Shown: one piece after another, positions 9,275-26,678 of the stretch
How the letters are laid out: every line of letters begins with the position of its first letter
Numbering within the stretch: the first letter of the stretch is position 1
NCBI GenBank assembly: GCA_900234795.1
Contig: LT962688.1
Location: 570,001 to 602,000, forward strand
DNA length: 32,000 nt
Source: Methylorubrum extorquens
GTDB taxonomy: Bacteria > Pseudomonadota > Alphaproteobacteria > Rhizobiales > Beijerinckiaceae
Direction of reading: 5' to 3'
Made by a program: the position numbers and the translations under genes
Notes under the pieces: model-generated
What the model was told of the DNA's origin: nothing
Databases searched by the model: none
The model's input: the letters and a program-made list of their open reading frames with translations, nothing else

Positions 9275-10495
9275 GTGCTCCTCGAAACGCTCCTCGCCGT
9301 GACGATGCTGCTGCCGCGGATCGAGCCCGCGCTCGACACGGCTCGGGCGCGCCTGCCGCCTCTCCCCCGCGCGGCCGAGGCGGCCCCGGCGCCCGCGCCG
9401 AGCTTCAGCCTCGTGGCGCGGGCCGTCTCGAACTGGCGGGAACAGGCGGGCGAGAACCTCGCGCCGGGCTCGCTCGCCTTCGTCGTCCGGCACGCGGCGA
9501 CGGAGCCGGGCTTCGTCGCCCGCTGTGTGCGGCTCAACAATTACTGGTGCATCAAACAGGCGCGGTGGAGCGGCGAGCTCGGCGGCGACGCGGAGGGCCA
9601 TACCGGCTTCGCGACCGCCGCCGACGGGGCGGATGCGGCGGTGCAGCTCCTGCGCCGCTACCAGCGTGATTACGGACGCCGCTCGGCACTCGCCATCGTG
9701 CGCCGCTGGGCGCCCGCCGAGTGCGGCGTGGCCCGCCCCGTCGCTGCCGCGCCCGTCGGCGGAAAGCCGAGGCCGCCGGCACGCCAAGCCGCCGGGCCCG
9801 CCGTGTCGACGACGACCGCACCACGGGGCATCGGCGGAACGTTGCGCGCCCGCTTCCTCGCGCGGCATGGGCGGGGCGGGGTCGCGCGGGCCGCGCCGAG
9901 CGCCGCCGCGGGGCTGCGGGTGCAACCTTGGTCGGCCCGTGCGCGGCTCGCCGGGCATCCCGGCCGGGCGCCCCGTGCCGTGGCAGGATCGACCGTCTCC
10001 GTGCCGAGGCCGGCCGCCGACATCGCGACGGGCCTGACCGAGGCACCGAAGATCGCGGCCAAGTCTCCGCCGGCGGTCAACCCGGCCCGTACTCTCGTCG
10101 CCTCCGGCGCGGCCAATCCTGCCGCCCTGCTGGCGCCCGACCGGCTCACGGCGGAGGCGGCAGCACTGCCCTCGATCGCCGCCTCGCTGCCGAAGGGCAG
10201 CCTGCTCGATCTCAGCCTCCCGGCCCCTGTCTGCGCCAACGACGAGACGCGCATCCGCAACTACGCCGCGCGGATCGCCGACAGCGTCGGCCTCAAGCCC
10301 GACGACGATCTGCGCCTGTTCCGCGACGACGGCCGGCCGAGCGACAACCTCCTGCCGGTGCTGCTGGCGATGTCCTCGGTCGAACTCGGTACGCTGCACG
10401 CCTCGAAGGCACTGGTGAGCGCGGCGATCGAGCGGCTCGAGGCGCGCCTCTCCGGAACCGCCTCGTCGGAAGCACGGTCGAATTCCGCACTCTAG
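9275..10495 (+). CDS. Hypothetical protein: N-terminal Cys-containing domain, Pro/Ala/Arg-rich linker, C-terminal helical domain
   Basis: 406 aa with high GC3 in this frame. The start is the GTG at 9275, or alternatively the ATG at 9305. Distinctive stretch: CVRLNNYWCIKQARWSGELGGDAEGHTGF. No family recognised. Confidence 0.55.
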   Translation: MLLETLLAVTMLLPRIEPALDTARARLPPLPRAAEAAPAPAPSFSLVARAVSNWREQAGENLAPGSLAFVVRHAATEPGFVARCVRLNNYWCIKQARWSGELGGDAEGHTGFATAADGADAAVQLLRRYQRDYGRRSALAIVRRWAPAECGVARPVAAAPVGGKPRPPARQAAGPAVSTTTAPRGIGGTLRARFLARHGRGGVARAAPSAAAGLRVQPWSARARLAGHPGRAPRAVAGSTVSVPRPAADIATGLTEAPKIAAKSPPAVNPARTLVASGAANPAALLAPDRLTAEAAALPSIAASLPKGSLLDLSLPAPVCANDETRIRNYAARIADSVGLKPDDDLRLFRDDGRPSDNLLPVLLAMSSVELGTLHASKALVSAAIERLEARLSGTASSEARSNSAL

Positions 10496-10822
10496 GACTA
10501 CGCCTCGAAGAGCACCGACCGGCCTGCGCGATGAAGCGCGCAGAGTGGAGAAGCACTACTCCCAAGGAGGCAGATGATCGCCGCCGTCCCGCTGGTATGG
10601 TCGTAGTAACGTCTCTCGGGGGCTTGCGGAAAACCGGTCGAGACACCGGTCCTCACACTCCCGGCGACGCGATGACCCTCCTGCTCGTCACGCGAAGGCA
10701 GGTGTGCCTCATCGGACGCCCGATCGCCGAGAGCGCCCGGCTCCAACCCGGCGGCGCGGCTGGCGTCCGGTGCGGGATGCCCGACCTCCGCCGATGAGCC
10801 GCACGGCCAGACGAGGATCGGG

Positions 10823-13800
10823 ATGTCCTGCATCGACGGCGAGGCTGTTTTCCAGTCGATCCCAGCCCGTTACGCCGCGCCCGGTTCGGACGGGGAGGGG
10901 CGGCCGGTCGTCCCCCTCGCCACGCCGACGCCGGAGGAACTGCAGGAGGTCTTCCGGCATCAGCTCGATGCCGTGTGCCGCGTGGTGGAGGAGCAGCTTC
11001 GCACGCTCGCGCTGACCTTCACAGCCGCGCGGGTGAGCCGGCCCGAGCCGCAATCATCGCCGGCTCTGCCGATGGCGGATCGCGGGGCAGAGCGGCCGCT
11101 GACCGACGGGGAGGCCGAGATCTGGCTCGCCGCGCAGTTCGGTGCCGACGCCAATGCCGCGATGACCGAGATCGTCACCCTGCGGCTCGACGGCCCGCTC
11201 GACGCCGAGCGGCTTCTCTCCGTCGTGAGAGCGGTGCTCGGCCGCCACGACGCCCTGCGCAGCCGCTTTTCCCCGAGCGGCGAGACCGTGCGGATCGATC
11301 CCGCGGGCCTCGTGCCGGTGCGATGGATCGATCTCGCGGGCGACTCCGATCCGGAGGCTGCTCTGGCGGCACATCTTCACGCACAAGCGGGCCTCTCGTT
11401 CGATCCCGTCGCCGGCCCGGTGGCGCAGGCCGACCTCGTTCGCCTCGGCGAGCGGCGTCACGTCCTCGTCCTCTCGGCCCACCACATCGCCTGCGACGGC
11501 TGGTCCTTCGCGGTCCTGGCCGACGCGATCGCGAGCGCCTACCGCGCCGCGCCGGAGGAGTTGGCGCCGGCCCCGCAGACCACGGGCTGTGCTCCATCGG
11601 AGGCGGAGGCGAGCCGGGCGCTGGATTACTGGGCCGGGCTCTATGCGAGCTTGCCCGAGCCGCTCGACCTGCCGGCCGACCATCCGCGGCCGAAGCTGCG
11701 CGGCTTTGCCGGCGACACCCGAAGCGCCGCTCTGCCTCCGCCGCTCGTCGCCGCGCTCAAAGCGCTGGCGGCGCGCCAGGGGCAGACGCTGAACGCCACG
11801 CTGCTCGCGGCCTTTCAAGTGCTCCTTGCCCGGCTCTCGGGGCAGGACGATCTCGTCGTCGGCGTGCCGATGGCGGGCCAGCCGCGCCGCGGCGAGCCGG
11901 ACCTCGTCGGGCACCACGCCGATTTCCTGCCGCTGCGGGCCCGGTTCGACCCGGACGAACCCTTCGCTGCCCAACTCGCCCGCACCGGCGCGGCCCTGGC
12001 CGAGGCCGCCGCTCACGCCGATTGCACCCTGGGGCGGCTGCTGCGCCATCTCGACCGGCCGCACGATCCGGCGCGCCCGCCGCTGGCGCAGGTGCAGTTC
12101 AACCTCCAGCGTTTCGCCGACGCCATCGATTTCGGGGCGGGCCTGCGCGGCACGCTCGCACCCGCGCCGAAGCGCTTCTCGACGTTCGAACTCACCGTCA
12201 GTCTCACCGAAACGTCCGACGGGCTGACCGTTGAGGCCACCTACAACCGCGCCCTGTTCGATCCGGCGACGATCGAGCGCTGGATCGGGCACTACCTCAC
12301 CCTGCTCGAGCATCTCGCCCGCGATCCCGCGCAGCCGGTCGGGCGCGTTCCGCTGCTTGATGCGGCCGAGCGGCAGACCATGCTGGTGGCCTGGAACGCG
12401 ACCGAGACAGCCCATCCGCTCAGGGTCGGGGCGATGCGGGCCTTCAGGCTCCACGCCCGGCGCGACCCGGACCGGATCGCGATCCGTTTCGGCGAAGAGA
12501 CCGTCTCCTACGGCGCCCTCGACCGCTGGGCCGATCGCGTCGCCGCGGCGTTGCAGGGAAGCGCTCTGCCCGAGGGGGCCCGCGTCGGCCTGCTCATGCG
12601 CCGCTCGCCCGGCCTCGTCGCGGCGATGCTCGGCGCTTTGCGCGCCGGCATCCCTTACGTCCCGCTCGACCCGGCCATGCCGCCTGCCCGCCGCGCGGGA
12701 ATCGTCGCCGATGCCGGGATCGGCGCGATGCTCACGCTTGCGGCCGACCGCGCGCTCCTGCCGGAGGGCCCCCGGATCATCGAGGTCGATCGTCTCGACG
12801 GGCCGGCGCCGACCCGCTTCCCGCGCGTGCCGGCGGAGCGGGCCGCCTACCTGATCTACACGTCGAGCACGACCGGCGCGCCGAAGGGCGTCGAGGTGCT
12901 GCATCGCGGCCTTTCGAACCTGCTGTTCTCGATGGCGCGGGCACCTGGGATCGCACGCGACGACCGGCTGCTGGCGGTGACGACGATCACCTTCGACATC
13001 GCCGGGCTCGAATTGCTGCTGCCGCTGATCCGCGGCGCCCAGATCGTGCTCGCCTCGGCCGAGGAAGCGCGCGACGGCCACGCCCTCCTCGCCCGCCTGG
13101 AACGGGACGAGGCCACCATGCTCCAGGCGACGCCGATGACGTGGCGGCTCCTGCTGGAGGCGGGTTTCCGCTCCCGTCCCGGCTTCAAGATGCTGTGCGG
13201 CGGCGAAGCGCTTCCGCTCGATTTAGCCCGGCGCCTCACCGAGGGCGGAGGCGAACTCTGGAACCTCTACGGGCCGACGGAGACGACGATCTGGTCCTCG
13301 GCCGCGCGGGTCGATCCGGGGGAGGAGACGGTCACGGTCGGGCGGCCGATCGACAACACCAGCCTGTTCATCCTCGACGCGCAGGGCGAGCCGGTGCCGG
13401 TCGGGGTCACGGGTGAATTGCTGATCGGCGGGATCGGGCTCGCCCGCGGCTATCTCGGACGGCCGGACCTGACGCAGCGCAGCTTCACCGCGAGTACGCT
13501 ACCGGAATGCGCCGGGGCGCAACTCTACCGGACCGGCGACCGCGCCCGCTACCGGCCGGACGGACGCGTCGAGATCCTGGGACGGGCCGACCACCAGATC
13601 AAGCTGCGCGGCTACCGGATCGAGCCCGCTGAGATCGAGGCGGTGCTGCTGCGCCAGACCGGGCTGCACGCCGTCGTGGTGCTGCGCCCTGACGCGGCGG
13701 GCGAGGATCGCCTCGTCTGCTACTTCGTGCGCCCCGAGGGCGAGGCGGCGCCCACCCTGCGCAATCTGCGCGCCGCGCTCGCCCGCGAACTCCCCGATTA

Positions 13801-14284
13801 CATGATCCCCTCAGAATGGGTCCGGCTGTCGGCCCTGCCGCTGACGGCGAGCGGCAAGGTCGATCGCCGGGCGCTGCCCGCTCCCGAGGCCCGGCCCACC
13901 GGTTCGGCCGAGCCGGCCGCCGCGATCAAGCTTCCCCTCAAGCCCGCTCCGGTCCCGACCTCCGACGACGGCCTCGAGACCACCCTCGCGGCGATCTGGC
14001 GGGAGGTGCTGGGGCTCGCCAGTGTGGAGCGGGACGACGACCTGATCGCGTTGGGTGCAGATTCGCTCAGCGTGTTCCGCATCGTCGCGCGGGCGCGGCG
14101 GGAGAACCTGCCGCTCGGGGCCGGCGATCTGTTTCAGGAACGCACCATCGCCCGGGTCGCGGCCCTGCTGCACGGGCGCCTCGGGGAAGGGCGCGAAACA
14201 CCGGCCGCCGCGCGCGCGCCGATCCCGTCGATCCGGCGCCCGAGGCCCGCCGACGCCGACCGCGCCGCGGTCGGTCAGGCGTGA
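10823..14284 (+). CDS. Non-ribosomal peptide synthetase, single module C-A-T (A domain predicted to activate glycine)
   Basis: - 1153 aa; GAGGA Shine-Dalgarno at 10814-10818.
- C domain: PLTDGEAEIWLAAQ, GRHDALRSRF, HHIACDG (11480-11500).
- A domain: LIYTSSTTGAPKG (A3), FDIAGLEL (A4), NLYGPTETT (A5), GELLIGGIGLARGY (A7), YRTGDRARYRPDGRVEILGRADHQIKLRGYRIE (A8), GK (Lys codon 13856-13858, A10).
- T domain: LGADSLS (Ser codon 14063-14065). Confidence 0.95.
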   Translation: MSCIDGEAVFQSIPARYAAPGSDGEGRPVVPLATPTPEELQEVFRHQLDAVCRVVEEQLRTLALTFTAARVSRPEPQSSPALPMADRGAERPLTDGEAEIWLAAQFGADANAAMTEIVTLRLDGPLDAERLLSVVRAVLGRHDALRSRFSPSGETVRIDPAGLVPVRWIDLAGDSDPEAALAAHLHAQAGLSFDPVAGPVAQADLVRLGERRHVLVLSAHHIACDGWSFAVLADAIASAYRAAPEELAPAPQTTGCAPSEAEASRALDYWAGLYASLPEPLDLPADHPRPKLRGFAGDTRSAALPPPLVAALKALAARQGQTLNATLLAAFQVLLARLSGQDDLVVGVPMAGQPRRGEPDLVGHHADFLPLRARFDPDEPFAAQLARTGAALAEAAAHADCTLGRLLRHLDRPHDPARPPLAQVQFNLQRFADAIDFGAGLRGTLAPAPKRFSTFELTVSLTETSDGLTVEATYNRALFDPATIERWIGHYLTLLEHLARDPAQPVGRVPLLDAAERQTMLVAWNATETAHPLRVGAMRAFRLHARRDPDRIAIRFGEETVSYGALDRWADRVAAALQGSALPEGARVGLLMRRSPGLVAAMLGALRAGIPYVPLDPAMPPARRAGIVADAGIGAMLTLAADRALLPEGPRIIEVDRLDGPAPTRFPRVPAERAAYLIYTSSTTGAPKGVEVLHRGLSNLLFSMARAPGIARDDRLLAVTTITFDIAGLELLLPLIRGAQIVLASAEEARDGHALLARLERDEATMLQATPMTWRLLLEAGFRSRPGFKMLCGGEALPLDLARRLTEGGGELWNLYGPTETTIWSSAARVDPGEETVTVGRPIDNTSLFILDAQGEPVPVGVTGELLIGGIGLARGYLGRPDLTQRSFTASTLPECAGAQLYRTGDRARYRPDGRVEILGRADHQIKLRGYRIEPAEIEAVLLRQTGLHAVVVLRPDAAGEDRLVCYFVRPEGEAAPTLRNLRAALARELPDYMIPSEWVRLSALPLTASGKVDRRALPAPEARPTGSAEPAAAIKLPLKPAPVPTSDDGLETTLAAIWREVLGLASVERDDDLIALGADSLSVFRIVARARRENLPLGAGDLFQERTIARVAALLHGRLGEGRETPAAARAPIPSIRRPRPADADRAAVGQA

Positions 14285-14295
14285 GGGCGGGCGGG

Positions 14296-16866
14296 ATGCG
14301 GCATTTCACGCAGGAATCGCCGGCCATGACCGGCGAGGTTCACGGCGGCGACGCCTTCACGGCCCGCTGCTCCCACAGCCAGACGCGGTTCTGGCTGCTC
14401 GATCAGTTGAGGCCGGGCGATCCGAGCCTGCACGTCGCCGCCCGCTGGCGCATCGCCGGACGGCTCGACGCCGAGATCCTCACCCGTGCCTTCCGCCTCT
14501 TGCTTGACCGGCACGAGGCTTTGCGCACGTCGATCGTCGGGGAGGGCGGGCGACCGGTGCAGCGGATCGCCGGAACGGTGCCGCTGGCCTTCTCCGAAAT
14601 CGACCTCTCCGGCCTGCCCGGCGACCGCCTCGGCGAGGCGCGCGCGATCGCCGAGTCGGAGGCCGGGAAGCCCTTCGATCTGGCCCGCGCGCCGCTCGTG
14701 CGGGTGACGCTGCTGCGGCTCGGGCGCGGCGATTCCCTGCTGCTCGTCACCGCCCATCACAGCATCTGCGACGGCTGGTCGATGGTGGTGCTGGCCCGCG
14801 AGTTCGTCGCGATCTACGGCGCCCTGATCCGGGGACAGGTACCGGCTCTGGCGCCTGCGGCCCTGCACTATGCCGACTTCGCGGAATGGGAGATCTCCCC
14901 GGCCCTCGCCGAGGCGGCGGAACGCGACCTCGCCTTCTGGGCACGCTCGTTGCGCGATCTCATCCCGTTCGAGCTGCCGCCGGACCATCCCCGCCGCCCC
15001 GGCCGGGAGCGCCGCTTCGCCGCCGAGACCCGCCCGCTTTCCGCCGATCTCGGCGCGCGCATGGAAGCGTACGCGCGGGCGCAGGGCGCCACCCCCTTCG
15101 TCCTCGCCTGCACCATCCTGTTCGGGCTCCTGAGCGCGCGCACCGGGCGCGGCGACATCGCCATCGGCACGCAGGTGCTGGGGCGCGACGAGATCGAGCT
15201 GGAAGGCGTCGTCGGCACCTTTGTGAACACGCTGGTGCTTCGGACCCGTGTCGAAGCGGAGCAGAGCTTCGCCGAGCGGCTGGCGGCGACCCGCCGGACG
15301 ATCCTCGACGCCTGCGATCACGCGCTCGCCCCCTTCGACCGGGTGGTGCAGGCGCTGGCGCCCTGCCGCGACGGGCTGCGGCCGCCGCTGGTCTCGGCCA
15401 ACGTCCGGATGCGGCCGGCGCCCCAGGCGACGCCGTCCGGCGGGTCCTCAGTCGGGGAGCCGGCCCCGATCCGCCTCGTCGATCTCGACTACGCCGCCAC
15501 CGGCAGCTTTTTCGACCTCGATCTCGAACTCGCGCCGGGCGAGGCCGGCTGGCGCCTGATCTGCGAGTACGATGCGGGCCTCTACGCGGCGGAGACCGTC
15601 GCCGGCCTGCTCGCCGATTTCGAGCAGGCGGCTCGCGCGGCGGTCGGGGCGCGGCTGCCTGATCCGGCCCCTCTGGGAAGGGGCGGGGGAGGGATCGCGG
15701 GCGAGCGTGAACAGGCATCCCGAGAAGAGGGTCAGCCGGAGGGGGAGGAGACGGCCGCGCGGGTGACGCCGGTTGCGGCACCTGCCCCTGAGACGCCGCC
15801 TCCCTCGGCGGGCGAGGCGGCGGGCGAACTTCTGCCGACGATACGCACGATCTGGCGGGAGATGCTCGGCCGCCCCGACCTGTCCGACGACGAGGATTTC
15901 TTTGCGGCGGGCGGGCACTCGCTGCTGGCCGCCCGCGTCGTCGCGCGGATCGAGGCGGCGACGGGCCGAACCGTTCCGCTCTGGTCGTTCTTCGAGGCGG
16001 GCACGGTCGCACGGCTCTGCGCCTTCCTCAGCGGCGAGGCGGCGGCGGGCGTGCGGCACCGCGCGCTTCAGGAGCCGACGGCGCAGGCGCGGCCCGGCTT
16101 CACCGCGATCCACCACGCCGCGGCCGATCAGGAACTCTACCGGCCCCTGTCCGAGGCCCTGGGGGCGGACCATCCCTTCGCGACGCTGCAACTGGAAAGC
16201 CGGGTTCCGCCCCACGAGGAAACCCTGGAGCGGCTGGCCGGCGCCTATCGCGAGGCGATCGATGCCGCGCAGCCGCAGGGGCCGATCCGCCTCGTCGGGT
16301 TCTGTCGCTCGGGCGTTCTCGCCTTCGAGATCGCCCGGCAGTTCGCGCAGGGCAGCCGGGACGTCGCCCTCGTCGTCCTGATCGATTGCTGGGAGCCCGG
16401 CTATATCAGGCGCCTCAAGCCGCTCGCGCGCATGCGGGTGATGGTGGCCTACCGGCGCGGCCGGCTCGCCGCGCTCATCCGCCACGTCCGCCGCGACGGC
16501 ATCGGCTACCTCGGCTCGCGGGCCCATCTCTGGTTCCGCTCGCATCGCGCCTGGCGCGGGTTGCGGCGCGCCCTGAACCGGGTGGGGCTCGCCACCCCGA
16601 GCCCGGAGGACGCGTTCTGGCAAGTGACCGACGAACTCGACGCGCTCGCCCTGGCCTACGAGCCGCGCCCCCATCCCGGGCCGGTGCTGATCGTCCGCAG
16701 CGAGAGTGTTCCGGTCGGCCCTGCGCTCGACCCGATGCTCGGCTGGCGCGCCTATGCCGAGAACTGCGAAAGCGTGAGCGTTCCGGGCTTCGGCCACGAG
16801 GGCGCGTTCTCTCCCGCCGGCTGCCGGGTGATGGCCGCCAAGATCAGCCTGATGGCGTGCCGGTGA
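14296..16866 (+). CDS. Non-ribosomal peptide synthetase, terminal module C-T-TE lacking an adenylation domain; the TE has Cys at the nucleophile position
   Basis: - Start at the ATG at 14296 (or 14326), 12 nt after the upstream stop. The 160 codons of the track ORF before that overlap the previous gene.
- C domain: SHSQTRFWLLDQL, DRHEALRTS, HHSICDG (14755-14775), YADFAEWE, VGTFVNTLVLR.
- An acidic/Pro-rich linker of about 90 aa follows.
- T domain: FFAAGGHSLLA (Ser codon 15919-15921).
- TE: LVGFCRSGVLAFEIA (Cys codon 16303-16305), VVLIDCW, VPGFGHEG. Confidence 0.92.
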   Translation: MRHFTQESPAMTGEVHGGDAFTARCSHSQTRFWLLDQLRPGDPSLHVAARWRIAGRLDAEILTRAFRLLLDRHEALRTSIVGEGGRPVQRIAGTVPLAFSEIDLSGLPGDRLGEARAIAESEAGKPFDLARAPLVRVTLLRLGRGDSLLLVTAHHSICDGWSMVVLAREFVAIYGALIRGQVPALAPAALHYADFAEWEISPALAEAAERDLAFWARSLRDLIPFELPPDHPRRPGRERRFAAETRPLSADLGARMEAYARAQGATPFVLACTILFGLLSARTGRGDIAIGTQVLGRDEIELEGVVGTFVNTLVLRTRVEAEQSFAERLAATRRTILDACDHALAPFDRVVQALAPCRDGLRPPLVSANVRMRPAPQATPSGGSSVGEPAPIRLVDLDYAATGSFFDLDLELAPGEAGWRLICEYDAGLYAAETVAGLLADFEQAARAAVGARLPDPAPLGRGGGGIAGEREQASREEGQPEGEETAARVTPVAAPAPETPPPSAGEAAGELLPTIRTIWREMLGRPDLSDDEDFFAAGGHSLLAARVVARIEAATGRTVPLWSFFEAGTVARLCAFLSGEAAAGVRHRALQEPTAQARPGFTAIHHAAADQELYRPLSEALGADHPFATLQLESRVPPHEETLERLAGAYREAIDAAQPQGPIRLVGFCRSGVLAFEIARQFAQGSRDVALVVLIDCWEPGYIRRLKPLARMRVMVAYRRGRLAALIRHVRRDGIGYLGSRAHLWFRSHRAWRGLRRALNRVGLATPSPEDAFWQVTDELDALALAYEPRPHPGPVLIVRSESVPVGPALDPMLGWRAYAENCESVSVPGFGHEGAFSPAGCRVMAAKISLMACR

Positions 16867-17313: not shown

Positions 17314-18486
17314 TCAGGCGATGGCGCGCCCGTCCCGCATCCGTGCGGCGAGCGCCGAGCGATAGACCGTCAGCAGCGTGGCGGTCGTCGCCGTCTCGGT
17401 CCAGTCGCGCAGGTAGGCGGCACGGGCGGCCGCGCCCATCCGCCGGGCTTCCTCCGGCCGGGCTCGCAACCGCTCGATGGCCTGGGCGAGGTCGGCCGGA
17501 TCGCCCGGCGTCACCAGCAGGCCCGTCACGCCGTCCTCGACGAGACCGGCGAGCGCACCGATCCGTGAGGCGATGACCGGGGTGCCCGCCGCATAGGCCT
17601 CGGCCACGACCATCGGCAACCCCTCGTACCAGAGCGAGGGCACGACGAGGGCTACCGCCCGGCCCATCCGCGCCCGCATCTCCGCGCGGGGCAGGGCGCC
17701 GAGCAGGTTGAGCCCGGGCGCCCCCTCCAGCATCTCCCGCAGCGGCCCTTCGCCCGCGACATCGACCGGTGCGGTAAGGAGCGCGCCGGCTCCCTTCAGG
17801 ATCTCGACGCCCTTCTCGGGGCTGAGGCGGCCGGCGAACAGGATGCCCTCGCGCAGGCCCTCACTCGGCGGCCCCGGATCGGGCAGGCCGTTGGGCTTCA
17901 CGAAGATGCGCTGCGCCGGCAATCCCGCCGCGATGAAGCGACCGCGGGCGAACTCGGTCAGCGCGACGAAGGCATCGACGTCCCGCGTCCACGTGCCGGT
18001 GCGGCGGTGCCGGTCGATCATCCGCGCCACGGCAAACGTGCCGAGCCGCGAGCCGCGGTAGCAACCGTGGCGCACCGCCGCGTAGGAGGAGCCGGTGAGG
18101 CAGGTCTCGCAGGGCGCGCCGTCGCGCATCAGCATGGCGCCTGCGCAGGCGAGGCGGAAATTGTGCAGCGTCTGCACGGTCACCGGGCCGAGCGCCCGCA
18201 CCACCCCATGCATGGCGGGCGAGACCAGCGGAAAGGTGTTGTGGGCGTGGACTACGTCCGGCCGGAAGCGCTCCACTGCCGCGACGACGCGGGCGATGCC
18301 GCGGGGCGCATGCGGCGCCTCGAACGCCGTGCGCAGGCGATCCAGCGGCGTGCGGATGTCGTCGTTGTGGAAGGCCAGGGTCTCGACCGTGCAGCCGGCC
18401 TCGGCCAGCGCCGCGGCCTCATGCTCCACCACCGCGTCCTCGCCGCCCCGGATCTGATAGTGGTTGTGGACGATGAGGACGCGCAA
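17314..18486 (-). CDS. Glycosyltransferase family 4 (GT-B, retaining, EX7E type)
   Basis: Trimmed to the TTG at 18486, which has a perfect AAGGAG Shine-Dalgarno (18494-18499) 7 nt upstream. N-terminus LRVLIVHNHYQIRGGED; C-terminal EGLPMVVAEAYAAGTPVIASRIGALAGLVEDGVTGLLV (EX7E). Confidence 0.85.
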   Translation of the reverse strand: MRVLIVHNHYQIRGGEDAVVEHEAAALAEAGCTVETLAFHNDDIRTPLDRLRTAFEAPHAPRGIARVVAAVERFRPDVVHAHNTFPLVSPAMHGVVRALGPVTVQTLHNFRLACAGAMLMRDGAPCETCLTGSSYAAVRHGCYRGSRLGTFAVARMIDRHRRTGTWTRDVDAFVALTEFARGRFIAAGLPAQRIFVKPNGLPDPGPPSEGLREGILFAGRLSPEKGVEILKGAGALLTAPVDVAGEGPLREMLEGAPGLNLLGALPRAEMRARMGRAVALVVPSLWYEGLPMVVAEAYAAGTPVIASRIGALAGLVEDGVTGLLVTPGDPADLAQAIERLRARPEEARRMGAAARAAYLRDWTETATTATLLTVYRSALAARMRDGRAIA

Positions 18487-18497
18487 CAGAGGGCTCC

Positions 18498-19373
18498 TTA
18501 CGACCGGCGCGGCTCGGGCTGGCGCGCGATCTTCCACAGGAAGACGGGCGCCATGACGAGATAGCGCCGCCACAGCCGCCGGGGCTCGCTCAGGAGCCGG
18601 TGCAGCCATTCGAGGGCGAGCACCTGCATGAGTTTCGGCGCACGCTTCACCGCCCCGGAATGGAAATCGAAGGCGGCGCCGACACCGATCAGCACCATGC
18701 CCGGCAAACGATCGAGGTGATCGTTCATCCAGATATCCTGCTTGGGCGTCGACATGCCGACCCAGACGATGTGCGGCTCGGCCGTCTTAATCGCATCGGT
18801 GAGCCGCGCGTCGAGATCGGGCGCGACGGTGCCGAAGGGCGGGCAAGCGAGGCCGCAGACCTCGGTACCGGGATATTTGCGGGCGAAATTCGACGCGACC
18901 TGCTCCGCCACGCCCTCCTTGCCGCCGTAGAGATAGTGGCGGATTCCGGTGTTCTGCGTGGCCGCGAACATCTCCTCCATCAGCGAGGGGCCCGGCACGC
19001 GGCCGGTGCCGTGCGCGCGGAAGAACCGGCTGATGATCGTGAGCGGCGCGCCGTCCGGTGTGATCATGCTGGCCCGCTCGTGCGCGGCCCTCAGATCGGG
19101 CTGGTCCTGGGCGCACATGATGCCGTGCACGTCGCGCACGCAGATCATGCTGGTGCGCCGCGCCCGCGCCCAGCCGATGACGGTGCGGACAGCGAACGGC
19201 ATGTCGATGACGCTCACCGGCACGCCGAGGATGCGGGTCGCCGGGAGACGATGCGCCGCCGGCCCGTCCGCCTGGACGAGGTAGGGATCGTTCCGGTTGA
19301 TCCGGAGCGCGTAGGGCCCGGAAGCCGGGATGGCCACGGCATCCATGGGCAGGCTTCCCTCGATCTCAGCCAT
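18498..19373 (-). CDS. WecG/TagA/CpsF-family glycosyltransferase (GT26)
   Basis: Motifs ITPDGAPL, GMSTPKQDIWM, GVGAAFDFHSGAVKRAPKLMQVLALEWLHRLLSEPRRLWRRYL. The ATG at 19373 has AGGAG 10 nt upstream and overlaps the fcl stop (ATGGCTGA). The stop TAA at 18498-18500 sits inside the Shine-Dalgarno of the next gene. Confidence 0.88.
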   Translation of the reverse strand: MAEIEGSLPMDAVAIPASGPYALRINRNDPYLVQADGPAAHRLPATRILGVPVSVIDMPFAVRTVIGWARARRTSMICVRDVHGIMCAQDQPDLRAAHERASMITPDGAPLTIISRFFRAHGTGRVPGPSLMEEMFAATQNTGIRHYLYGGKEGVAEQVASNFARKYPGTEVCGLACPPFGTVAPDLDARLTDAIKTAEPHIVWVGMSTPKQDIWMNDHLDRLPGMVLIGVGAAFDFHSGAVKRAPKLMQVLALEWLHRLLSEPRRLWRRYLVMAPVFLWKIARQPEPRRS

Positions 19374-20304
19374 GGGCGACATGCTCCTGGAACCACGCAT
19401 AGGTCGCGGCGATGCCGTCCCGCAGCGGCACCTTCGGCGCCCAGCCGAGGCCGCGCAGCTTGTCCGCCGACATCAGCTTGCGCGGGGTGCCGTCGGGCTT
19501 GCTCGGATCACGCACGATCTCGCCCTCGAACCCGACGACCTCGCAGACGAGGCGGGTCAGGTCGTAGATCGGGATGTCCTCGCCCGAGCCGACATTGACG
19601 TGCTCGGCCTCCGAATAGGTCTTCATCAGGTGCACGCAGGCGTCGGCGCAGTCATCGACGTGCAGGAACTCGCGGCGCGGCGATCCGGTGCCCCAGATCA
19701 CCATCTCCCGCGCGCCGGAGCGCTTGGCCTCGTGCGCCTTGCGGATCAGGGCCGGCAGGACGTGGCTGGAATTGAGGTCGAAATTATCGCCCGGCCCGTA
19801 GAGGTTGGTCGGCATGGCCGAGATGAAGTCGCGGCCGTGCTGCTGGCGATAGGCCTGGGCGAGCTTGATCCCGGCGATCTTGGCGACCGCGTACCACTCG
19901 TTGGTCGGCTCCAGCGAGCCGGTGAGCAGGCTCGCTTCGACGATCGGCTGTTCGGCGAATTTCGGGTAGATGCAGCTCGACCCGAGGAACAACAGCTTGC
20001 CGACATCCTCGCGGAACGCCGCCTCGATGACGTTGGCCTCGATCATCAGGTTCTCGTAGAGGAAGTCGGCCGGGTAGGTCGCGTTGGCCAGGATCCCGCC
20101 GACCTTGGCCGCGGCCAGGAACACCGCATCCGGCCGCCGGTCCCGCATCCAGGCGCGCACGGCGGCCTGATCGCACAGGTCGAGTTCCGCGCGGCTGGCG
20201 GTGAGGACCTCGCAATCCTCACCCTTCAAACGCCGTACCAGGGCGCTGCCGACGAGGCCGCGATGTCCGGCGACGAAGACGGTCTTGCCCGCCAAGCTGT
20301 GCAT
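19366..20304 (-). CDS. fcl: GDP-L-fucose synthase (GDP-4-keto-6-deoxy-D-mannose 3,5-epimerase/4-reductase)
   Basis: 312 aa from the ATG at 20304 (MHSLAGKTVFVAGHRGLVGSA). Motifs GSSCIYPK, EWYAVAKIAG, PTNLYGPGDNF, HVLPALIRK, DGTPRKL. A strong family match. Confidence 0.9.
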   Translation of the reverse strand: MHSLAGKTVFVAGHRGLVGSALVRRLKGEDCEVLTASRAELDLCDQAAVRAWMRDRRPDAVFLAAAKVGGILANATYPADFLYENLMIEANVIEAAFREDVGKLLFLGSSCIYPKFAEQPIVEASLLTGSLEPTNEWYAVAKIAGIKLAQAYRQQHGRDFISAMPTNLYGPGDNFDLNSSHVLPALIRKAHEAKRSGAREMVIWGTGSPRREFLHVDDCADACVHLMKTYSEAEHVNVGSGEDIPIYDLTRLVCEVVGFEGEIVRDPSKPDGTPRKLMSADKLRGLGWAPKVPLRDGIAATYAWFQEHVAHG

Positions 20305-20314
20305 CGGTCGGCCC

Positions 20315-21286
20315 CTACAGAAGCGGGTTGGAATCGGTCGGCGCCGGGTTCTCGCGGTACCACGCGACCGTGCGCTCGATGCCCTGGACCAGGGAAACGC
20401 TCGGCGCGTAGCCGATCGCCTGCATCTTGCCGATGTCGGGGCAGCGGCGCGGCGTCGCCCCGGCGGCGGCCGGTCCGGCAATCAGCTCGACGCGGGTGCC
20501 GAGCGCCTCCGCGGTGATCCGGGCGAGGTCGCGGATCGCGACCTCCTCCATCGAGCCGATGTGGTAGACGTTCATGCTCTCGCCATCGCGCCACATCCGG
20601 ACGATGCCGTCGACGACGTCGCTGACGTAGCAGAAGGCGCGGGTCTCGCTGCCGTCGCCCTGAAGCGTGATCGATCCGCCGTCACCGGCCGCGACGATCT
20701 TCTCGATGAGCTGCGGCACGACATGCTTCCAGCCCATATCCGGCCCGTAGATGTTGTGCGGGCGGAAGACCTGGACCTTGCGCAACTTGTCGCGGCAATA
20801 GTTGAAGGCGATCAGCTCCGAGATCAGCTTCGACCCGCCATAGGAATAGCGCGGGTTGAGCGAGTCGGGGATCACCATCTCGATGGTCTCGTCCGTCGGC
20901 ACCACGCGCGGGGTCTGGTAGACCTCCGCCGAGGAGGCGACGACGAGATCGGGCACACCGGCCTCGATGCAGGCTTCTGAGACGGCAAGCGCGCCGCGCA
21001 CGCCGACATCGAGCACGAGCTGCGGCTGCGTGTAGAAGTTCTCCGTACCGTTGACGGCGGCCAGATGAAACACGCACTCGACGCCCCGGAGCGCCTCGAC
21101 CAGCGCATCCTTGTCGCGCACGTCGAGCGTCACGCGCTCGATCGCACGCTGGGCATTGGCGAGCCGCGAGGCCTGTCCGCGGATGTAGTTGTCGATCGCG
21201 ACGACCTCGTGCCCCTCGGCCAGGAGCGCGCGGGTGAGGTGGGCGCCGATGAATCCGCCCGCCCCGGTGACAGCCAGTCTGCTCAT
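20315..21286 (-). CDS. NAD-dependent epimerase/dehydratase-family SDR (UDP-glucuronate decarboxylase/epimerase-like)
   Basis: 323 aa. VTGAGGFIGAHL (GxxGxxG), SSAEVY, YSYGGSK (YxxxK). The start ATG at 21286 overlaps the upstream stop (ATGA). Confidence 0.85.
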   Translation of the reverse strand: MSRLAVTGAGGFIGAHLTRALLAEGHEVVAIDNYIRGQASRLANAQRAIERVTLDVRDKDALVEALRGVECVFHLAAVNGTENFYTQPQLVLDVGVRGALAVSEACIEAGVPDLVVASSAEVYQTPRVVPTDETIEMVIPDSLNPRYSYGGSKLISELIAFNYCRDKLRKVQVFRPHNIYGPDMGWKHVVPQLIEKIVAAGDGGSITLQGDGSETRAFCYVSDVVDGIVRMWRDGESMNVYHIGSMEEVAIRDLARITAEALGTRVELIAGPAAAGATPRRCPDIGKMQAIGYAPSVSLVQGIERTVAWYRENPAPTDSNPLL

Positions 21287-22620
21287 TGAAACTTACCCAC
21301 GAGGTTGCCCACGGTGACGTAGCGATTTTCCAGAACCTCCGCCGGCATCTCGCTGAGGTTGTTCCAGTAATCGTAGACGAAGGCGTCGTCCGACATCGTA
21401 CCGATGATCGTTTCCAGATCGATCTTCGAATATTCCGGATGGTTGTTGGCGATCACGAGCACATCGGCACCCTCGCAGGCGGCCGCGAGGCTGTCGTAGG
21501 GCGTCAGCCCCGACGAGATGGCCCGGATGTGATCCATCGGCACCACGCCGTCATAGACGCGGATTTCCGAAAACTGCTCGGTCGCCATCATCTCGCGGAT
21601 GACGTGGAGCGACATCGACCCGCGCAGGTCGTCGGTCTCCGGGCGGCCCTTGAAGGCAAGGCCGGCGACCACCGCCTTGAACGGTCCGGCGCGGCGGGCC
21701 CGCAGCCGCTCGACGAGGCTGCCCACCGTTTCGGCCGGCTGGCGCTCGTTGACGAGGCGGGAGGCCGCGGTGATCTCGAGGTTCACGCCCTGGCCCGAGA
21801 CCGACGAGAGCAGGATGTGCGGATCCTTCTCCAGGCAGGGCCCGCCGACGAGGCCCGGCGCGGCGACATTGGTGCGGGTGTAGCCGAGTTTGCCGTAGCG
21901 GATGACGTCGTTGGCGTTGATGCCGAGCGCGTCGCAGGCCCGCGCCACCTCGTTGGCGAAGGCGAAGTGGACGTCGCGCGAGGTGTTGTCGACGAGCTTG
22001 ATCATCTCCGCCGTCTCCGGGCTCGCGACCCGGACGATGGTGTGGGTCAGGCGGCTGAACAGGGCGGCCGCCGCGTCGGACGCGTCCGGCGTCTCACCGC
22101 CAACGATCTGCGGCAGGTTGATGAGTTCGCGCATCGCGTCGCCTTCGAGCGTCCGCTCGGGGCACATCGCGAGGTGGTAGGGCGTGCCGGTGCGGTCGAG
22201 GATCGGCTTGACCACGCCCGTCGTCGTGCCGATCCGCACGGTCGAGCGCAGGATCACCGTGGCGCCCTCGGTGAAGTGCTCGGCCACCTCGCGGGTCGCC
22301 TCTTCAATCATGTCGAGACGCGGCTCGTGCGAGCCGGGATAGAGCGGGGTGCCGACCGTGATGATGTAGTACTCGGCCCGCGGCACATCGTGCGTCGTGG
22401 TGCTCGCGACGAAGCGGCCCTTCTTCACGACGTCGGCGAGGGCGGCCTGAAGCCCCACCTCGGCGAAATGCGGCATGCCGGCATTGGTCTTTTCGACAAC
22501 GTCGGCCCGCTTCTCGATGCCGTAGACCTGGACACCGCGGCGGGCCAGGGCGACGGACAGGGTCAGGCCGACATAACCGAGACCAATGATGACGACGTTG
22601 GGAGCTTTTCTGGCGTCCAT
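21283..22620 (-). CDS. Nucleotide-sugar dehydrogenase (UDP-glucose/GDP-mannose dehydrogenase family)
   Basis: Trimmed to the ATG at 22620 (MDARKAPNVVIIGLGYVGLTLS, GxGxxG). Catalytic Cys motif GGPCLEKDP. C-terminal UDP-binding-type region GLAFKGRPETDDLRGS. First gene of the five-gene minus-strand operon. Confidence 0.88.
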   Translation of the reverse strand: MDARKAPNVVIIGLGYVGLTLSVALARRGVQVYGIEKRADVVEKTNAGMPHFAEVGLQAALADVVKKGRFVASTTTHDVPRAEYYIITVGTPLYPGSHEPRLDMIEEATREVAEHFTEGATVILRSTVRIGTTTGVVKPILDRTGTPYHLAMCPERTLEGDAMRELINLPQIVGGETPDASDAAAALFSRLTHTIVRVASPETAEMIKLVDNTSRDVHFAFANEVARACDALGINANDVIRYGKLGYTRTNVAAPGLVGGPCLEKDPHILLSSVSGQGVNLEITAASRLVNERQPAETVGSLVERLRARRAGPFKAVVAGLAFKGRPETDDLRGSMSLHVIREMMATEQFSEIRVYDGVVPMDHIRAISSGLTPYDSLAAACEGADVLVIANNHPEYSKIDLETIIGTMSDDAFVYDYWNNLSEMPAEVLENRYVTVGNLVGKFQ

Positions 22621-22735
22621 AACTTGGTCCCGTCTGCGATCGATCGTCGGAATCTCTGACCCGATTGGGAAACCGGCACGGCGCAAGCGCTCGCCCGTCA
22701 CCGCTCCACCCCGGGACGGCCGAAACCGTCGGGAT

Positions 22736-22753
22736 TGAACTGTGACCAGTTCA
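22736..22753. promoter_or_regulatory. Inverted repeat TGAACTG-N4-CAGTTCA about 115 bp upstream of the glycan operon start (candidate operator)
   Basis: Perfect 7-bp arms read directly from the sequence. A second palindrome, TTGACGGTCAA, lies at 22847-22857. There is no functional evidence. Confidence 0.2.
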
Positions 22754-23081
22754 GCAAAGCCTGTGCCTAAGGAAATTCGTATCAAACCGGGACCAACGGC
22801 CCGTCAGCGGACACTCAGAGTTCGTCGCGCGAAGATTTCGGGACTTTTGACGGTCAACGGACGGAGTCCGGCGGGTGGAACAATTGATTCTTGTCGGGTC
22901 GGCCGGGGCGGGGGATCGCGATCCGTTCACCCGTCGAGCTGTTTCAATCCCGCGGCACCCGCGCGGCCCATAGCCTCAGCCCGCCCCGGTGCCGCCCAAG
23001 CAACGCTTCGCGCCGCGCTTCGTTCGTCCTGCCGGAGACGGTGGGGCGCAGCGGGCGCCGCCGGCTTGGAGGGAGACGCGG

Positions 23082-23303: not shown

Positions 23304-23738
23304 GGAGGGCTCAGCAAACGCCCGGCCGCCGGACGGCCTCGGGTCGGTCACAGCAGCGCATTTTGTGAGAGACCGTGAGGATGGCGCCGGGGTTGCCCGC
23401 CGGTGTCACCTCCGCATCAAGGTGCGTTCGGGGGCAAGGTGTGGATTCTCACGCCGCGCAACCATCGGGCCGATTTCGCCTTTTCCTCGCCATTCCCTTG
23501 CGGTCGAACCGCCGGACATGCCTTAAGTGCATCAGCGAGTGCCACGCCCACCAGGGCGAGTGGTCTCAACCCAAATTCCGACGATCCCATAGGGATAGCG
23601 GATTGGGGCTTCGCTCGAGCGCTGCGCAGGCTGGGCGATACGCTTCCCGCTTCGAATCGAGCGGAAACCGTATCACTCTCACGCGCGGTCCCCTTTCGTC
23701 CTTCAGGCCGCTCCCGAGCCTGCATCTCGCCAGGGTTG

Positions 23739-26678
23739 ATGTCGTCCAACGCCTTTCTCGCCGCCGCCGCGATCCTCCCCTTCGCGGGCTCCGTGCTCAC
23801 GGGCGCCCTGCCGAGCCATGCCCGCACCGCCGCGGCCGTGCTCGCCGGGTTCGTGACCCTGGCCAGCCTCGGCTGCATCCTCGCGCTCACGCCGCAACTG
23901 GCCGAGGGCGGCACCGTCGTCCACGCGGTCGAGTGGCTGCCGAGCCTCGGTGTCAACCTCGTCCTGCGGCTCGACGGGCTCGCGTGGCTGTTCGCGGTGC
24001 TGGTGCTCGCCATCGGCGCGCTGGTGGTGCTCTACGCGCGCTACTACATGGCCGCCGCCGACCCGGTGCCGCGGCTGTTCTCGTACTTCCTCGCCTTCGT
24101 CGGCGCGATGCTCGGCATCGTTCTCTCCGGCAACCTGATCCAGCTCGTCCTGTTCTGGGAATTGACGAGCATCGTCTCATTCCTGCTGATCGGATACTGG
24201 TACGACAACGCCGCGGCCCGTGACGGCGCGCGGATGTCGCTGACCATCACCGCGGCGGGCGGCCTGTGCCTGCTCGTCGGGACGGTGCTGATCGGACGCA
24301 TCGTCGGCAGCTACGATTTGGCCACCGTGCTGGCCTCGGGCGACACGATCCGCAACAGCCCGCTCTACCTGCCGGCCCTGGTGCTGGTCCTCATGGGCGC
24401 GCTCACCAAGTCGGCGCAGTTCCCGTTCCACATCTGGCTGCCGCGGGCGATGGCGGCGCCGACGCCGATCAGCGCCTACCTGCACTCGGCCACCATGGTG
24501 AAGGCCGGCATCTTCCTGATGATCCGCCTGTGGCCAGTGCTCGCGGGCACCGACGCGTGGTACTGGATCGTCGGCAGCGCCGGCATGGCGACCCTGCTGA
24601 TCGGCTCGTGGAGCGCGATCTTCCAGCACGACCTGAAGGGTCTGCTCGCCTACTCGACCATCAGCCATCTCGGGCTGATCACGCTGCTGCTCGGCCTGAA
24701 CTCGCCGCTCGCCGTGGTCGCCGCGATCTTCCACACGGTGAACCACGCCACCTTCAAGGCCTCGCTGTTCATGGCGGTCGGCATCATCGACCACGAGACC
24801 GGCACGCGCGACATGCGCCGCCTCTCCGGCCTGTGGCGGGCGATGCCCTATACCGGCACGCTCGCCATGGTCGCCGCCGCGGCGATGGCCGGCGTGCCGC
24901 TGCTCAACGGCTTCCTTTCGAAGGAGATGTTCCTCTCCGAGGCGGTCGACAACATGGGCGACCACCCGATCCATATCGCCCTGCCGGTGCTGGCGACGCT
25001 GGCCAGCGCCTTCACCATGCTCTACTCGCTGCGCTTCATCCGCCAGACCTTCTTCGGCCCGCCCCCGCACGACCTGCCGAAGACGCCGCACGAGCCGGTG
25101 CGGTGGATGCGCATCCCGATCGAGATGCTGGTGCTCGCCTGCATCGCCATCGGCCTCGTCCCGAACCTCACCATCGGCCCGGCCCTGGAGCGGGCGGTGA
25201 GCGCGGTGTTCGGCGCGGAGACTCCGACCTACAGCCTCGCGATCTGGCACGGCTTCAACGCACCGCTGGCGCTCAGCATGATCGCCCTCGTCGGCGGCGT
25301 GCTGCTCTACGTCCTGTTCGGAAAGCGCATCAACACCAATCCCCGCGGCGGCCCCTGGCTGATGGACCGCCTCGACGGTGGCTGGGTGTTCGAGCGCGTG
25401 ATGACCGGGCTGACGAAGGGTGCCCGCCTGCTGGAACGGGCCTTCGGCGCCGAGCGGCTCCAGCCGCAATTGCGCATCCTGTTCCTCGCCGCCCTGCTCG
25501 CCGCGCTGGCGACCGGCGTCGCCCGCGGGCTCGACCTCTTCGCGCTTGGCCGGCTCACGCCGTTCGATCCCGCCTTCGCGCTGATGTGGCTCGTCGGCGG
25601 CGCCTGCGCGATCGGCGCGGCGGAGCGGGCGAAGTATCACCGCCTCTCGGCCACGATCTTCGTCGGCGGGGCCGGCCTCGTCAGCAGCCTGACCTTCCTC
25701 TGGCTCTCGGCGCCGGATCTGGCGGTGACGCAGATCCTCGTCGAGATCGTCACCACCGTCATGCTGCTGCTGGGCCTGCGCTGGCTGCCCAAGCGCGACC
25801 GGGCGATTCCCGCGCCCGCCGCCGAGAAGGCGCGGGCCCGGCGCCGCCGCCTCGTCGATCTCTGCATCGCCAGCTTTGCCGGGCTGGGACTCGCCGGCCT
25901 CGCCTACGCCGTGATGACCCGCCCGGCCGGCGACGGCATCGCGCGCTGGTTCATCGAGGAGGCCTATCCGCAGGCGGGCGGGCGCAACGTCGTCAACGTG
26001 CTGCTGGTCGACTTCCGCGCCTTCGACACGCTGGGCGAGATCTCGGTGCTCGGCATCGTCGGCCTTACGGTGTTCGCGCTGCTGCGCCGCTTCCGCCCGG
26101 CCCCGGACAGCCTGGAGCGTCCCAAGCAGCAGCACCACCACGACGCCTACGACCGCGCCCGCGAGGGCCGCAAACCCGGCGACACCACCGCCGACGCCTT
26201 GATGGTGCCGCGGGTGGTGATGACGTGGCTGTTCCCGTTCATCGTGCTGCTGTCGCTGCACCTGTTCCTGCGCGGCCACGACCTGCCCGGCGGCGGCTTC
26301 GCCGCGGGCATCGCGCTCACCATCGCCTTCATCCTGCAATACATGGCCTGCGGCGCGCGGTGGGTGGAGGAGCGCCTACGCATCCAGCCGATCTCGTGGA
26401 TCGGTCTCGGCCTGCTCATCGCGGTGGGCGCCGGCGCGGCCTCGTGGGCGTTCGGGCGGCCCTTCCTCACCGCCTACTTCGCCTATTGGGAGCTGCCGCT
26501 GCTCGGCAAGGTCCCGGCGGCGAGCGCCCTGGTGTTCGATCTCGGGATCATGGTGCTGGTGGTGGGCGCGAGCGCCCTGATGCTGGTGGCGCTCGCCCAC
26601 CAATCCCTGCGCCGCACCCGCAGCGCGGAGGCGGAGGCCGAACTGGATGCCGAACAGGCCGGCGAGGAGACGGCGTAA
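23739..26678 (+). CDS. mrpA: Monovalent cation/H+ antiporter subunit A, fused MrpA-MrpB (group-2 Mrp/Pha type)
   Basis: About 979 aa from the ATG at 23739 (MSSNAFLAAAAILPFAGSVL). NuoL/ND5-like core: WELTSIVSFLLIGYW, SAQFPFHIWLPRAMAAPTPISAYLHSATMVKAG. The C-terminal MrpB-like part is VNVLLVDFRAFDTLGEI. Confidence 0.92.
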   Translation: MSSNAFLAAAAILPFAGSVLTGALPSHARTAAAVLAGFVTLASLGCILALTPQLAEGGTVVHAVEWLPSLGVNLVLRLDGLAWLFAVLVLAIGALVVLYARYYMAAADPVPRLFSYFLAFVGAMLGIVLSGNLIQLVLFWELTSIVSFLLIGYWYDNAAARDGARMSLTITAAGGLCLLVGTVLIGRIVGSYDLATVLASGDTIRNSPLYLPALVLVLMGALTKSAQFPFHIWLPRAMAAPTPISAYLHSATMVKAGIFLMIRLWPVLAGTDAWYWIVGSAGMATLLIGSWSAIFQHDLKGLLAYSTISHLGLITLLLGLNSPLAVVAAIFHTVNHATFKASLFMAVGIIDHETGTRDMRRLSGLWRAMPYTGTLAMVAAAAMAGVPLLNGFLSKEMFLSEAVDNMGDHPIHIALPVLATLASAFTMLYSLRFIRQTFFGPPPHDLPKTPHEPVRWMRIPIEMLVLACIAIGLVPNLTIGPALERAVSAVFGAETPTYSLAIWHGFNAPLALSMIALVGGVLLYVLFGKRINTNPRGGPWLMDRLDGGWVFERVMTGLTKGARLLERAFGAERLQPQLRILFLAALLAALATGVARGLDLFALGRLTPFDPAFALMWLVGGACAIGAAERAKYHRLSATIFVGGAGLVSSLTFLWLSAPDLAVTQILVEIVTTVMLLLGLRWLPKRDRAIPAPAAEKARARRRRLVDLCIASFAGLGLAGLAYAVMTRPAGDGIARWFIEEAYPQAGGRNVVNVLLVDFRAFDTLGEISVLGIVGLTVFALLRRFRPAPDSLERPKQQHHHDAYDRAREGRKPGDTTADALMVPRVVMTWLFPFIVLLSLHLFLRGHDLPGGGFAAGIALTIAFILQYMACGARWVEERLRIQPISWIGLGLLIAVGAGAASWAFGRPFLTAYFAYWELPLLGKVPAASALVFDLGIMVLVVGASALMLVALAHQSLRRTRSAEAEAELDAEQAGEETA

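Follow-up and report, generated by a model that had tools for sequence, protein, structure and literature searches.

A terminal nonribosomal peptide synthetase module without an adenylation domain in Methylorubrum extorquens, and its possible loading in trans

Domain architecture of the gene pair

The stretch of Methylorubrum extorquens DNA analyzed here (contig LT962688.1, positions 570,001 to 602,000; 32,000 nt, hereafter the window, with coordinates counted from its first nucleotide) carries two adjacent nonribosomal peptide synthetase (NRPS) genes, gene A (10823–14284, forward strand, 1153 aa) and gene B (14296–16866, forward strand, 856 aa), whose products together contain a single adenylation (A) domain. 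The G+C content of the window is about 70%, and the best matches of its proteins come from the Methylorubrum/Methylobacterium extorquens group, with 97–98% identity.

Gene B encodes a terminal module composed of a condensation (C) domain with the HHxxxDG motif, a carrier (T) domain with its serine and a type I thioesterase (TE), and it really lacks an A domain between C and T. The Pfam scan identified the Condensation family (PF00668; aa 25–446, E-value 1.4e-71), PP-binding (PF00550; aa 515–578, E-value 1e-14) and Thioesterase (PF00975; aa 605–705, E-value 2.6e-15), corresponding to the C domain at 14368–15633, the carrier domain (hereafter T2) at 15838–16029 and the TE domain at 16051–16866, all on the forward strand, and gave no match of gene B to the AMP-binding families (PF00501/PF13193) even at E≤1. 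When intact C-A-T-TE relatives were compared by tblastn with the whole window in all frames, A-domain similarity was found inside gene A only (11060–14170). The place where an A domain would be expected is taken by a Pro/Ala/Glu-rich linker (15649–15822, forward strand; aa 452–509), for which the AlphaFold2 model exhibits no secondary structure and a predicted local distance difference test score (pLDDT) below 50, and which is hypervariable in the alignment (A1), differing in length and sequence, with indels, among Methylorubrum species. The absence of the A domain, proposed in a preliminary description made from the sequence of the window, is therefore confirmed by Pfam, tblastn and AlphaFold2. 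None of the three revealed a cryptic AMP-binding fold at residues 440–540, and a cryptic or frameshifted A domain is ruled out by the Pfam and tblastn results together with the disordered, hypervariable character of the linker. The linker length of about 90 residues given in that description holds for the distance from the end of the C domain to the carrier serine, whereas the inter-domain linker proper comprises only about 60 aa.

The motifs quoted for gene B in the preliminary description were all recovered at their positions, namely HHSICDG (14755–14775), YADFAEWE (14869–14892) and VGTFVNTLVLR (15211–15243) in the C domain and GGHS (15910–15921) in T2. The C domain is of the ordinary, LCL-like type: its HHxxxDGWS motif is invariant across alignment A1, and its best matches in the PDB are the peptide-bond-forming C domains of Txo2, TycC6, Txo1 and the fuscachelin PCP-C structure, in agreement with the earlier assignment to the peptide-bond-forming type. 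The pantetheine-attachment serine of T2 (aa 542, in GGHS) is kept in all Methylorubrum orthologues.

The TE domain of gene B exhibits a cysteine in place of the usual serine. Its nucleophile motif GFCRSG (16297–16314, aa 668–673) aligns to the nucleophile serine of the thioesterases of polyketide synthases (PKS) and NRPS and to the GWCFGG motif of AB3403; the catalytic histidine lies in GFGHEG (16786–16803), and a candidate aspartate, whose assignment is tentative, in VLIDCW (16375–16392). Alignments revealed that GxCxxG is kept across the whole hybrid family described below. In M. populi asparagine replaces the cysteine (GFNRSG; gene 10001–12607 of locus L001), a substitution seen in two independent sources, a complete genome and a metagenome contig.

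Gene A is composed of an N-terminal extension followed by C, A and T domains (Pfam: Condensation, aa 100–521; AMP-binding, aa 542–878; AMP-binding_C, aa 937–1012; PP-binding, aa 1054–1116). The C domain (11120–12385) carries the motif HHIACDG, the A domain (12446–13858) is the sole one in the window according to Pfam and tblastn, and the carrier domain (hereafter T1; 13982–14170) carries the motif LGADSL, all on the forward strand. The positions of the specificity code were mapped by alignment, with the FDxxx, GGE and NxYGPTE motifs as anchors, and read DILQLGLIWK, the canonical glycine signature, which is identical in all Methylorubrum orthologues. Among solved structures, gene A matches that of the LgrA C-A(Gly)-T module (module 2) best, with 693 bits compared to 531 for the next protein; code and structural match together bear out the earlier view of the upstream A domain as glycine-specific. 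The two genes are co-directional, with the start codon of gene B 11 nt after the stop codon of gene A, and a Shine-Dalgarno-like GAGGG overlaps the latter (junction sequence: TGAGGGCGGGCGGGATG).

The extension of gene A (about 88 aa; 10823–11086, forward strand) is specific to Methylorubrum according to the orthologue alignment. It holds a helix, TPEELQEVFRHQLDAVCRVVEEQLRTL, which is kept in all Methylorubrum orthologues, while its flanks are variable, and it shows a weak Pfam match to the dimerization domain Hera_DD (E-value 0.17). No alignment was obtained between these first ~88 residues and the aminotransferase end or the linker that precede the corresponding C domain in Bosea-type hybrids. 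The helix may be a docking or dimerization element for an upstream partner.

Conservation and selection within Methylorubrum

Orthologues of gene B with the same C-T-TE architecture (839–868 aa, 74–98% identity) were found in M. extorquens, M. rhodesianum, M. thiocyanatum, M. populi, M. zatmanii, M. podarium and related strains, and those of gene A are 75–97% identical within Methylorubrum. The same gene pair with its flanks is present in M. populi (L001/L002) and in Methylobacterium sp. R2-1 and M. podarium (L010/L011). The order shared with M. populi comprises an aldo-keto reductase, a histidine phosphatase, a protein of 406–430 aa, gene A and gene B; beyond the pair, both in the window and in M. 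populi, there follow an opposite-strand operon with glycosyltransferase, WecG, epimerase and UDP-sugar dehydrogenase genes, and then the Mrp antiporter genes.

The ratio of nonsynonymous to synonymous substitution (dN/dS), calculated by the Nei-Gojobori method for the window against M. populi, is 0.25 for gene A and 0.27 for gene B, compared to 0.07–0.23 for the neighboring genes. By domain, the values are 0.22 (C), 0.21 (T2) and 0.27 (TE) in gene B, and 0.48 (N-terminal extension), 0.27 (C), 0.16 (A) and 0.12 (T1) in gene A. Synonymous divergence amounts to 0.4–0.5, and neither reading frame is interrupted in any of the species seen. The remaining catalytic motifs (both HHxxxDG motifs, both carrier serines and the Cys/His of the TE) are kept under purifying selection.

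The terminal module has been without its A domain since before Methylorubrum diversified. The loss is not recent and the gene is not a pseudogene, because the locus is syntenic across the genus and evolves under purifying selection. A recent pseudogenizing deletion of the A domain, which the preliminary description had named as a finding that would speak against it, is not borne out by the orthologues; the conservation of C-T-TE across Methylorubrum and the low dN/dS rule it out.

The parental hybrid PKS-NRPS family

Outside Methylorubrum, gene A is most closely related to the C-A-T end of large hybrids of the type ketosynthase (KS)-acyltransferase (AT)-acyl carrier protein (ACP)-aminotransferase (AMT)-C-A-T (in Bosea, P0133 with 53% and P0134 with 52% identity), and the closest outside relatives of gene B are the proteins encoded directly downstream of these hybrids (Bosea-type P0019/P0020; 45% identity in the C domain and 43% in the TE). 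A survey of one genome per species, covering 80 loci annotated by domain BLAST of their open reading frames (ORFs) with Pfam spot-checks, revealed a conserved line of three genes: [A-T loader], [KS-AT-ACP-AMT-C-A(Gly)-T] and [terminal C-(A)-T-TE]. In Rhizobiales it is found in Rhizobium, Agrobacterium, Sinorhizobium, Azorhizobium, Ancylobacter, Labrys, Chelativorans, Methylocapsa, Bosea, Chelatococcus and Bradyrhizobium, and outside this order in Acidobacteria, Verrucomicrobia, Gammaproteobacteria and Nostoc. The A domain that follows the aminotransferase exhibits the glycine code in 49 of 51 hybrids, while the codes of the loader A domains are variable (Val-like, Thr and others).

The first gene of the line (118–2049 in L009, 3–2045 in L003, 3231–10001 in L008) resembles a fatty-acyl ligase fused to an ACP. 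It carries amino-acid codes (DAFWIGGTFK for Val, DFWNLGMVHK for Thr), so the starter is an amino acid rather than a fatty acid, and the PKS-aminotransferase part would extend it into a diamino acid unit. A fatty-acyl-AMP ligase providing a fatty-acyl starter, as in mycosubtilin, was therefore rejected for this family.

The gene A/B pair is a truncated descendant of this widespread three-gene line, of which Methylorubrum keeps only the last third, recognizable by the homology of gene A to the glycine C-A-T part and by a terminal protein with a Cys-TE of the same clade. Neither the A-T loader nor the KS-AT-ACP-AMT part occurs in the window or in L001, L002, L010 and L011, and the C domain of gene A has no ancestral donor (PKS plus aminotransferase) in cis at the locus. 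Remnants of the aminotransferase or the PKS upstream of gene A were sought by tblastn of the window, and none were detectable. A search for the missing KS-AT-ACP-AMT half elsewhere returned no Methylorubrum protein among its 120 best matches (all with at least 53% identity), which is a weak negative.

This truncation raises the question of whether the pair could be a slowly decaying remnant without a defined product, left behind when the loader, the PKS and the aminotransferase were lost. The complete disappearance from the locus of parts that nearly all relatives possess, and their absence from the best matches elsewhere, would fit such a scenario, as would the lack of a phosphopantetheinyl transferase, an MbtH-like protein or a transporter nearby, the dN/dS of the pair, which exceeds that of the neighboring genes, and the asparagine at the nucleophile position in M. 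populi. However, both frames are open in all species seen, at a synonymous divergence of 0.4–0.5, each domain has a dN/dS far below 1, the catalytic motifs are conserved, and gene A has gained a new and conserved N-terminal helix. We therefore regard decay as quite unlikely.

A literature search turned up no published product of either the Methylorubrum cluster or the hybrid family. The methylolanthanin locus was considered and is different, being a cluster of the NRPS-independent siderophore (NIS) type; the carenaemin cluster of Collimonas also proved to be a different system.

Fate of the terminal A domain across the family

The terminal protein of the line exists in a series of forms. An intact A domain in a C-A-T-TE context is found with a glycine code (L009, L029, L033, L082, P0024, P0034, P0073) or with a Val-like code (L075, L079, L080, L088). 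In other C-A-T-TE proteins (P0037, P0044, P0048, L027, L040, L044) the AMP-binding fold is kept (190 bits for the AMP-binding family in L040, 9899–13993) and the A domain is degenerate; because core motifs A3, A5, A7 and A8 and the lysine of A10 are lost, these are probably inactive pseudo-A domains. P0033 retains a fragment of the A domain between C and T. A clean C-T-TE architecture with no other A domain within 10 kb is exhibited by about 25 named genomes, all from Rhizobiales, and a C-C-T-TE architecture by L030, L036, L067, L078 and L089. Finally, in Bosea and Chelatococcus the carrier is missing as well, and the terminal protein is reduced to C-TE (L003, 9998–12259; L006, 4728–6983; L021, 10001–12145), a form kept across many Bosea genomes.

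In the neighbor-joining tree of the C domains, a single tree without support values, the A-less forms arise at least three times, and the Methylorubrum C-T-TE and Bosea C-TE proteins form a clade whose sister group consists mostly of C-A-T-TE proteins of the Gly type. Within this family the terminal A domain has repeatedly proved dispensable. Two glycine modules in series are present in P0132/L008 and in L009. We also observed that the terminal module is split in another way in L008 (16135–17259), which has a C-A(Gly)-T-C-A(Gly) arrangement followed by a separate carrier protein of 102 aa and a separate alpha/beta hydrolase.

How the carrier domain of gene B may be loaded

Because the clade of Methylorubrum and Bosea is sister to the mostly Gly-type clade, the lost terminal A domain was probably glycine-specific and redundant with the upstream one. 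Since the nearest intact relatives of gene B are mostly of this type, loading of T2 in trans by the glycine A domain of gene A appears to be the best explanation of the present architecture, and we put it forward tentatively, as a reading with nearly an even chance of being correct. According to this model, in its simplest form, the ancestral terminal module would have added a second glycine, hence the redundancy of its A domain with that of the upstream module. The single A domain of gene A would load glycine onto its own T1 and also, in trans, onto T2 of gene B, which sits on a disordered tether of 40–110 residues, long enough to bring it within reach of that A domain. The donor for the C domain of gene A may be supplied in trans via the conserved N-terminal helix, the C domain of gene B would join the T1-bound (acyl-)glycyl donor to Gly-S-T2 to give an X-Gly-Gly thioester, and the Cys-TE would release or transfer the X-Gly-Gly product. 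The window has no other A domain, and none lies within 10 kb of the pair in M. populi.

Several observations weigh against this model. Recognition of T2 by the A domain of gene A is itself inferred. Among the intact terminal A domains of the family, Val-like codes are about as frequent as glycine codes, and in complete clusters the loader A domain is an equally available candidate for loading in trans. The locus L004 possesses a free-standing A gene (542 aa, Val-type code DAFWLGGTFK) directly upstream of an A-less C-T-TE gene, so dedicated enzymes acting in trans are used in the family. The sister lineage in Bosea and Chelatococcus has no T domain either, so the terminal C and TE domains can evidently work without a carrier of their own. 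The asparagine at the TE nucleophile position in M. populi also counts against it. Thus, of the earlier claim that T2 must be aminoacylated in trans, with the upstream glycine A domain as the obvious candidate, the candidate stands as a sensible substitute, given the Gly-type intact relatives, but the "must" is undercut by the C-TE proteins, by L004 and by the second, uncharacterized NRPS region reported for M. extorquens AM1.

The L004 arrangement directs attention to an enzyme encoded elsewhere in the genome, either a free-standing A domain or an A-T protein with an aminoacyl shuttle of the SyrB1/SyrC kind, in which case the C-terminal residue of the product would be other than glycine. Separate enzymes serve the C-T-TE module of SyrE in this manner (PMC8949500, section 4.1), complete members of the present family own a separate A-T loader, missing at the Methylorubrum locus, and antiSMASH analysis of M. 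extorquens AM1 reported two uncharacterized NRPS regions without a known product (bioRxiv 10.64898/2026.05.05.723055), which likewise counts against the gene A model, our own analysis covering 32 kb. On the other hand, genes for a further A, A-T or SyrC-like protein are missing from the window and, in M. populi, from the 10 kb around the pair, the ~25 A-less relatives likewise have no extra A domain within that distance, and the search for relatives of the PKS-aminotransferase half, weak as this negative is, returned no Methylorubrum protein among the best 120. An unlinked loader is in our opinion somewhat unlikely.

Or perhaps T2 is not aminoacylated at all? The C domain of gene B could use a free amine, a free alcohol, a nucleophile of the same molecule or an aminoacyl group attached to another carrier, and the T2-TE part could then serve in hand-over, editing or transfer of the chain, for instance onto a glycan. 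The conserved C-TE proteins of Bosea and Chelatococcus, which are the nearest relatives outside Methylorubrum and manage without a carrier, agree with this possibility, and so does a TE with a cysteine nucleophile, as in AB3403. But the T2 serine is conserved and the domain is under purifying selection (dN/dS 0.21), the C domain of gene B resembles an ordinary elongation domain, and no C domain is known to transfer a chain to a carrier that is not loaded. On balance we consider an unloaded T2 rather unlikely.

Comparison with characterized systems

In the yersiniabactin system a single A domain of HMWP2 loads several carriers, including one on a second protein, HMWP1. The logic proposed here for gene A and gene B is the same, with one A domain, two carriers, two proteins and one amino acid; the differences are that HMWP1/2 employ cyclization domains and cysteine, and that their loading in trans is experimentally proven while that in Methylorubrum is deduced.

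The ninth module of SyrE is a terminal C-T-TE module without an A domain, whose carrier is loaded in trans via SyrB1 (an A-T protein) and SyrC (PMC8949500, section 4.1). Gene B shares this architecture, but the SyrE cluster includes the A-T didomain, a halogenase and the aminoacyl shuttle, none of which is found near the Methylorubrum pair, and the Methylorubrum module stands as a protein of its own behind a single glycine module. A dedicated A or A-T gene in the cluster was seen in neither the window nor L001/L002, and occurs only in the relative L004. The same review describes inactive A domains complemented in trans in the albicidin, ramoplanin and enduracidin systems, where an external A domain is needed (PMC8949500, section 4.1). 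The family members with a degenerate terminal A domain (P0037, L040 and others) resemble these, except that the albicidin, ramoplanin and enduracidin clusters contain a dedicated stand-alone A-T protein, which most family members do not.

AB3403 from Acinetobacter baumannii (C-A(Gly)-T-TE; 4ZXH and 4ZXI in the PDB) binds glycine and serves as the termination module in an orphan pathway (PMC10510592). Of all solved structures it matches the gene B TE best, and both possess a cysteine at the nucleophile position (GWCFGG versus GFCRSG). In contrast to gene B, AB3403 retains an A domain. The C domains of the two are distant (82 bits for AB3403, versus 177 for Txo2), and the AB3403 cluster has a donor system composed of an acyl-ligase and an ACP. 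Hybrid loading of the mycosubtilin/iturin type is also related, in that the C-A-T part of gene A shares homology with the C-A-T module behind the aminotransferase domain; there, however, the starter is a fatty acid, while in the present family it is an amino acid, and Methylorubrum has lost the entire PKS-aminotransferase part.

Genomic neighborhood

Downstream, and converging on the NRPS pair from the reverse strand, lies an operon encoding a glycosyltransferase of family GT4, WecG/TagA, two NAD-epimerases/dehydratases and a UDP-sugar dehydrogenase (17314–22785). The NRPS genes are bordered by polysaccharide genes (glycosyltransferases, WecG, Wzy, Wzz, Poly_export, Bac_transf, UDP-sugar dehydrogenase, Acyl_transf_3) both in the window and in all other loci examined in detail (L003–L009), loci from other phyla among them, and polysaccharide genes beside NRPS genes have also been noted in a Bosea genome announcement (PMC10508160). 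This neighborhood, with Acyl_transf_3 in L004, L005 and L009, adds some weight to the possibility that T2 is unloaded and that the chain is transferred to a glycan.

It also motivates a more speculative reading, namely peptidylation of a glycan. The pair would be the minimal form of a large family residing in polysaccharide loci, in which one glycine A domain charges two carriers on two proteins to make Gly-Gly and the Cys-TE, instead of setting a peptide free, works as a transferase that couples this unit to an exopolysaccharide or a glycolipid, in a manner reminiscent of the D-alanylation of teichoic acids or the addition of glycine and diglycine to lipid A in Vibrio, here carried out by an assembly line. 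We consider this very unlikely.

Three ORFs (9275–10495, 4339–5829 and 5956–6609) look coding according to the profile of G+C at third codon positions and have no Pfam match. The one of 406 aa, directly upstream of the pair, is Ala/Pro-rich and conserved in M. populi (430 aa, dN/dS 0.22). The flanks (1–2345 and 23403–29213) encode MraY-like and Mur ligase proteins, a Kef-type K+/H+ exchanger and an Mrp antiporter operon of seven subunits, and a radical SAM gene of the YgiQ type extends from 29847 onward. The G+C content is flat across the NRPS pair. Because of its housekeeping flanks, the pair resides in the core chromosome and not in an obvious island.

Conclusions

The collinearity rule already has a recognized exception in NRPS modules that lack an A domain, so the bare observation of one more is not surprising: the kind is already known from SyrE, and the Methylorubrum pair is a new, uncharacterized case of it. 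For genome-mining software such loci carry a warning, since neither a missing residue nor a dead cluster should be predicted there. The family around the pair forms a natural series of A-domain decay, from intact through degenerate and fragmentary to deleted, and on to loss of the T domain too, which allows one to ask how a module comes to depend on the A domain of its neighbor. With one A domain and two carriers on two proteins, in a genetically tractable model methylotroph, the Methylorubrum pair is about the simplest system in which loading in trans between proteins could be tested.

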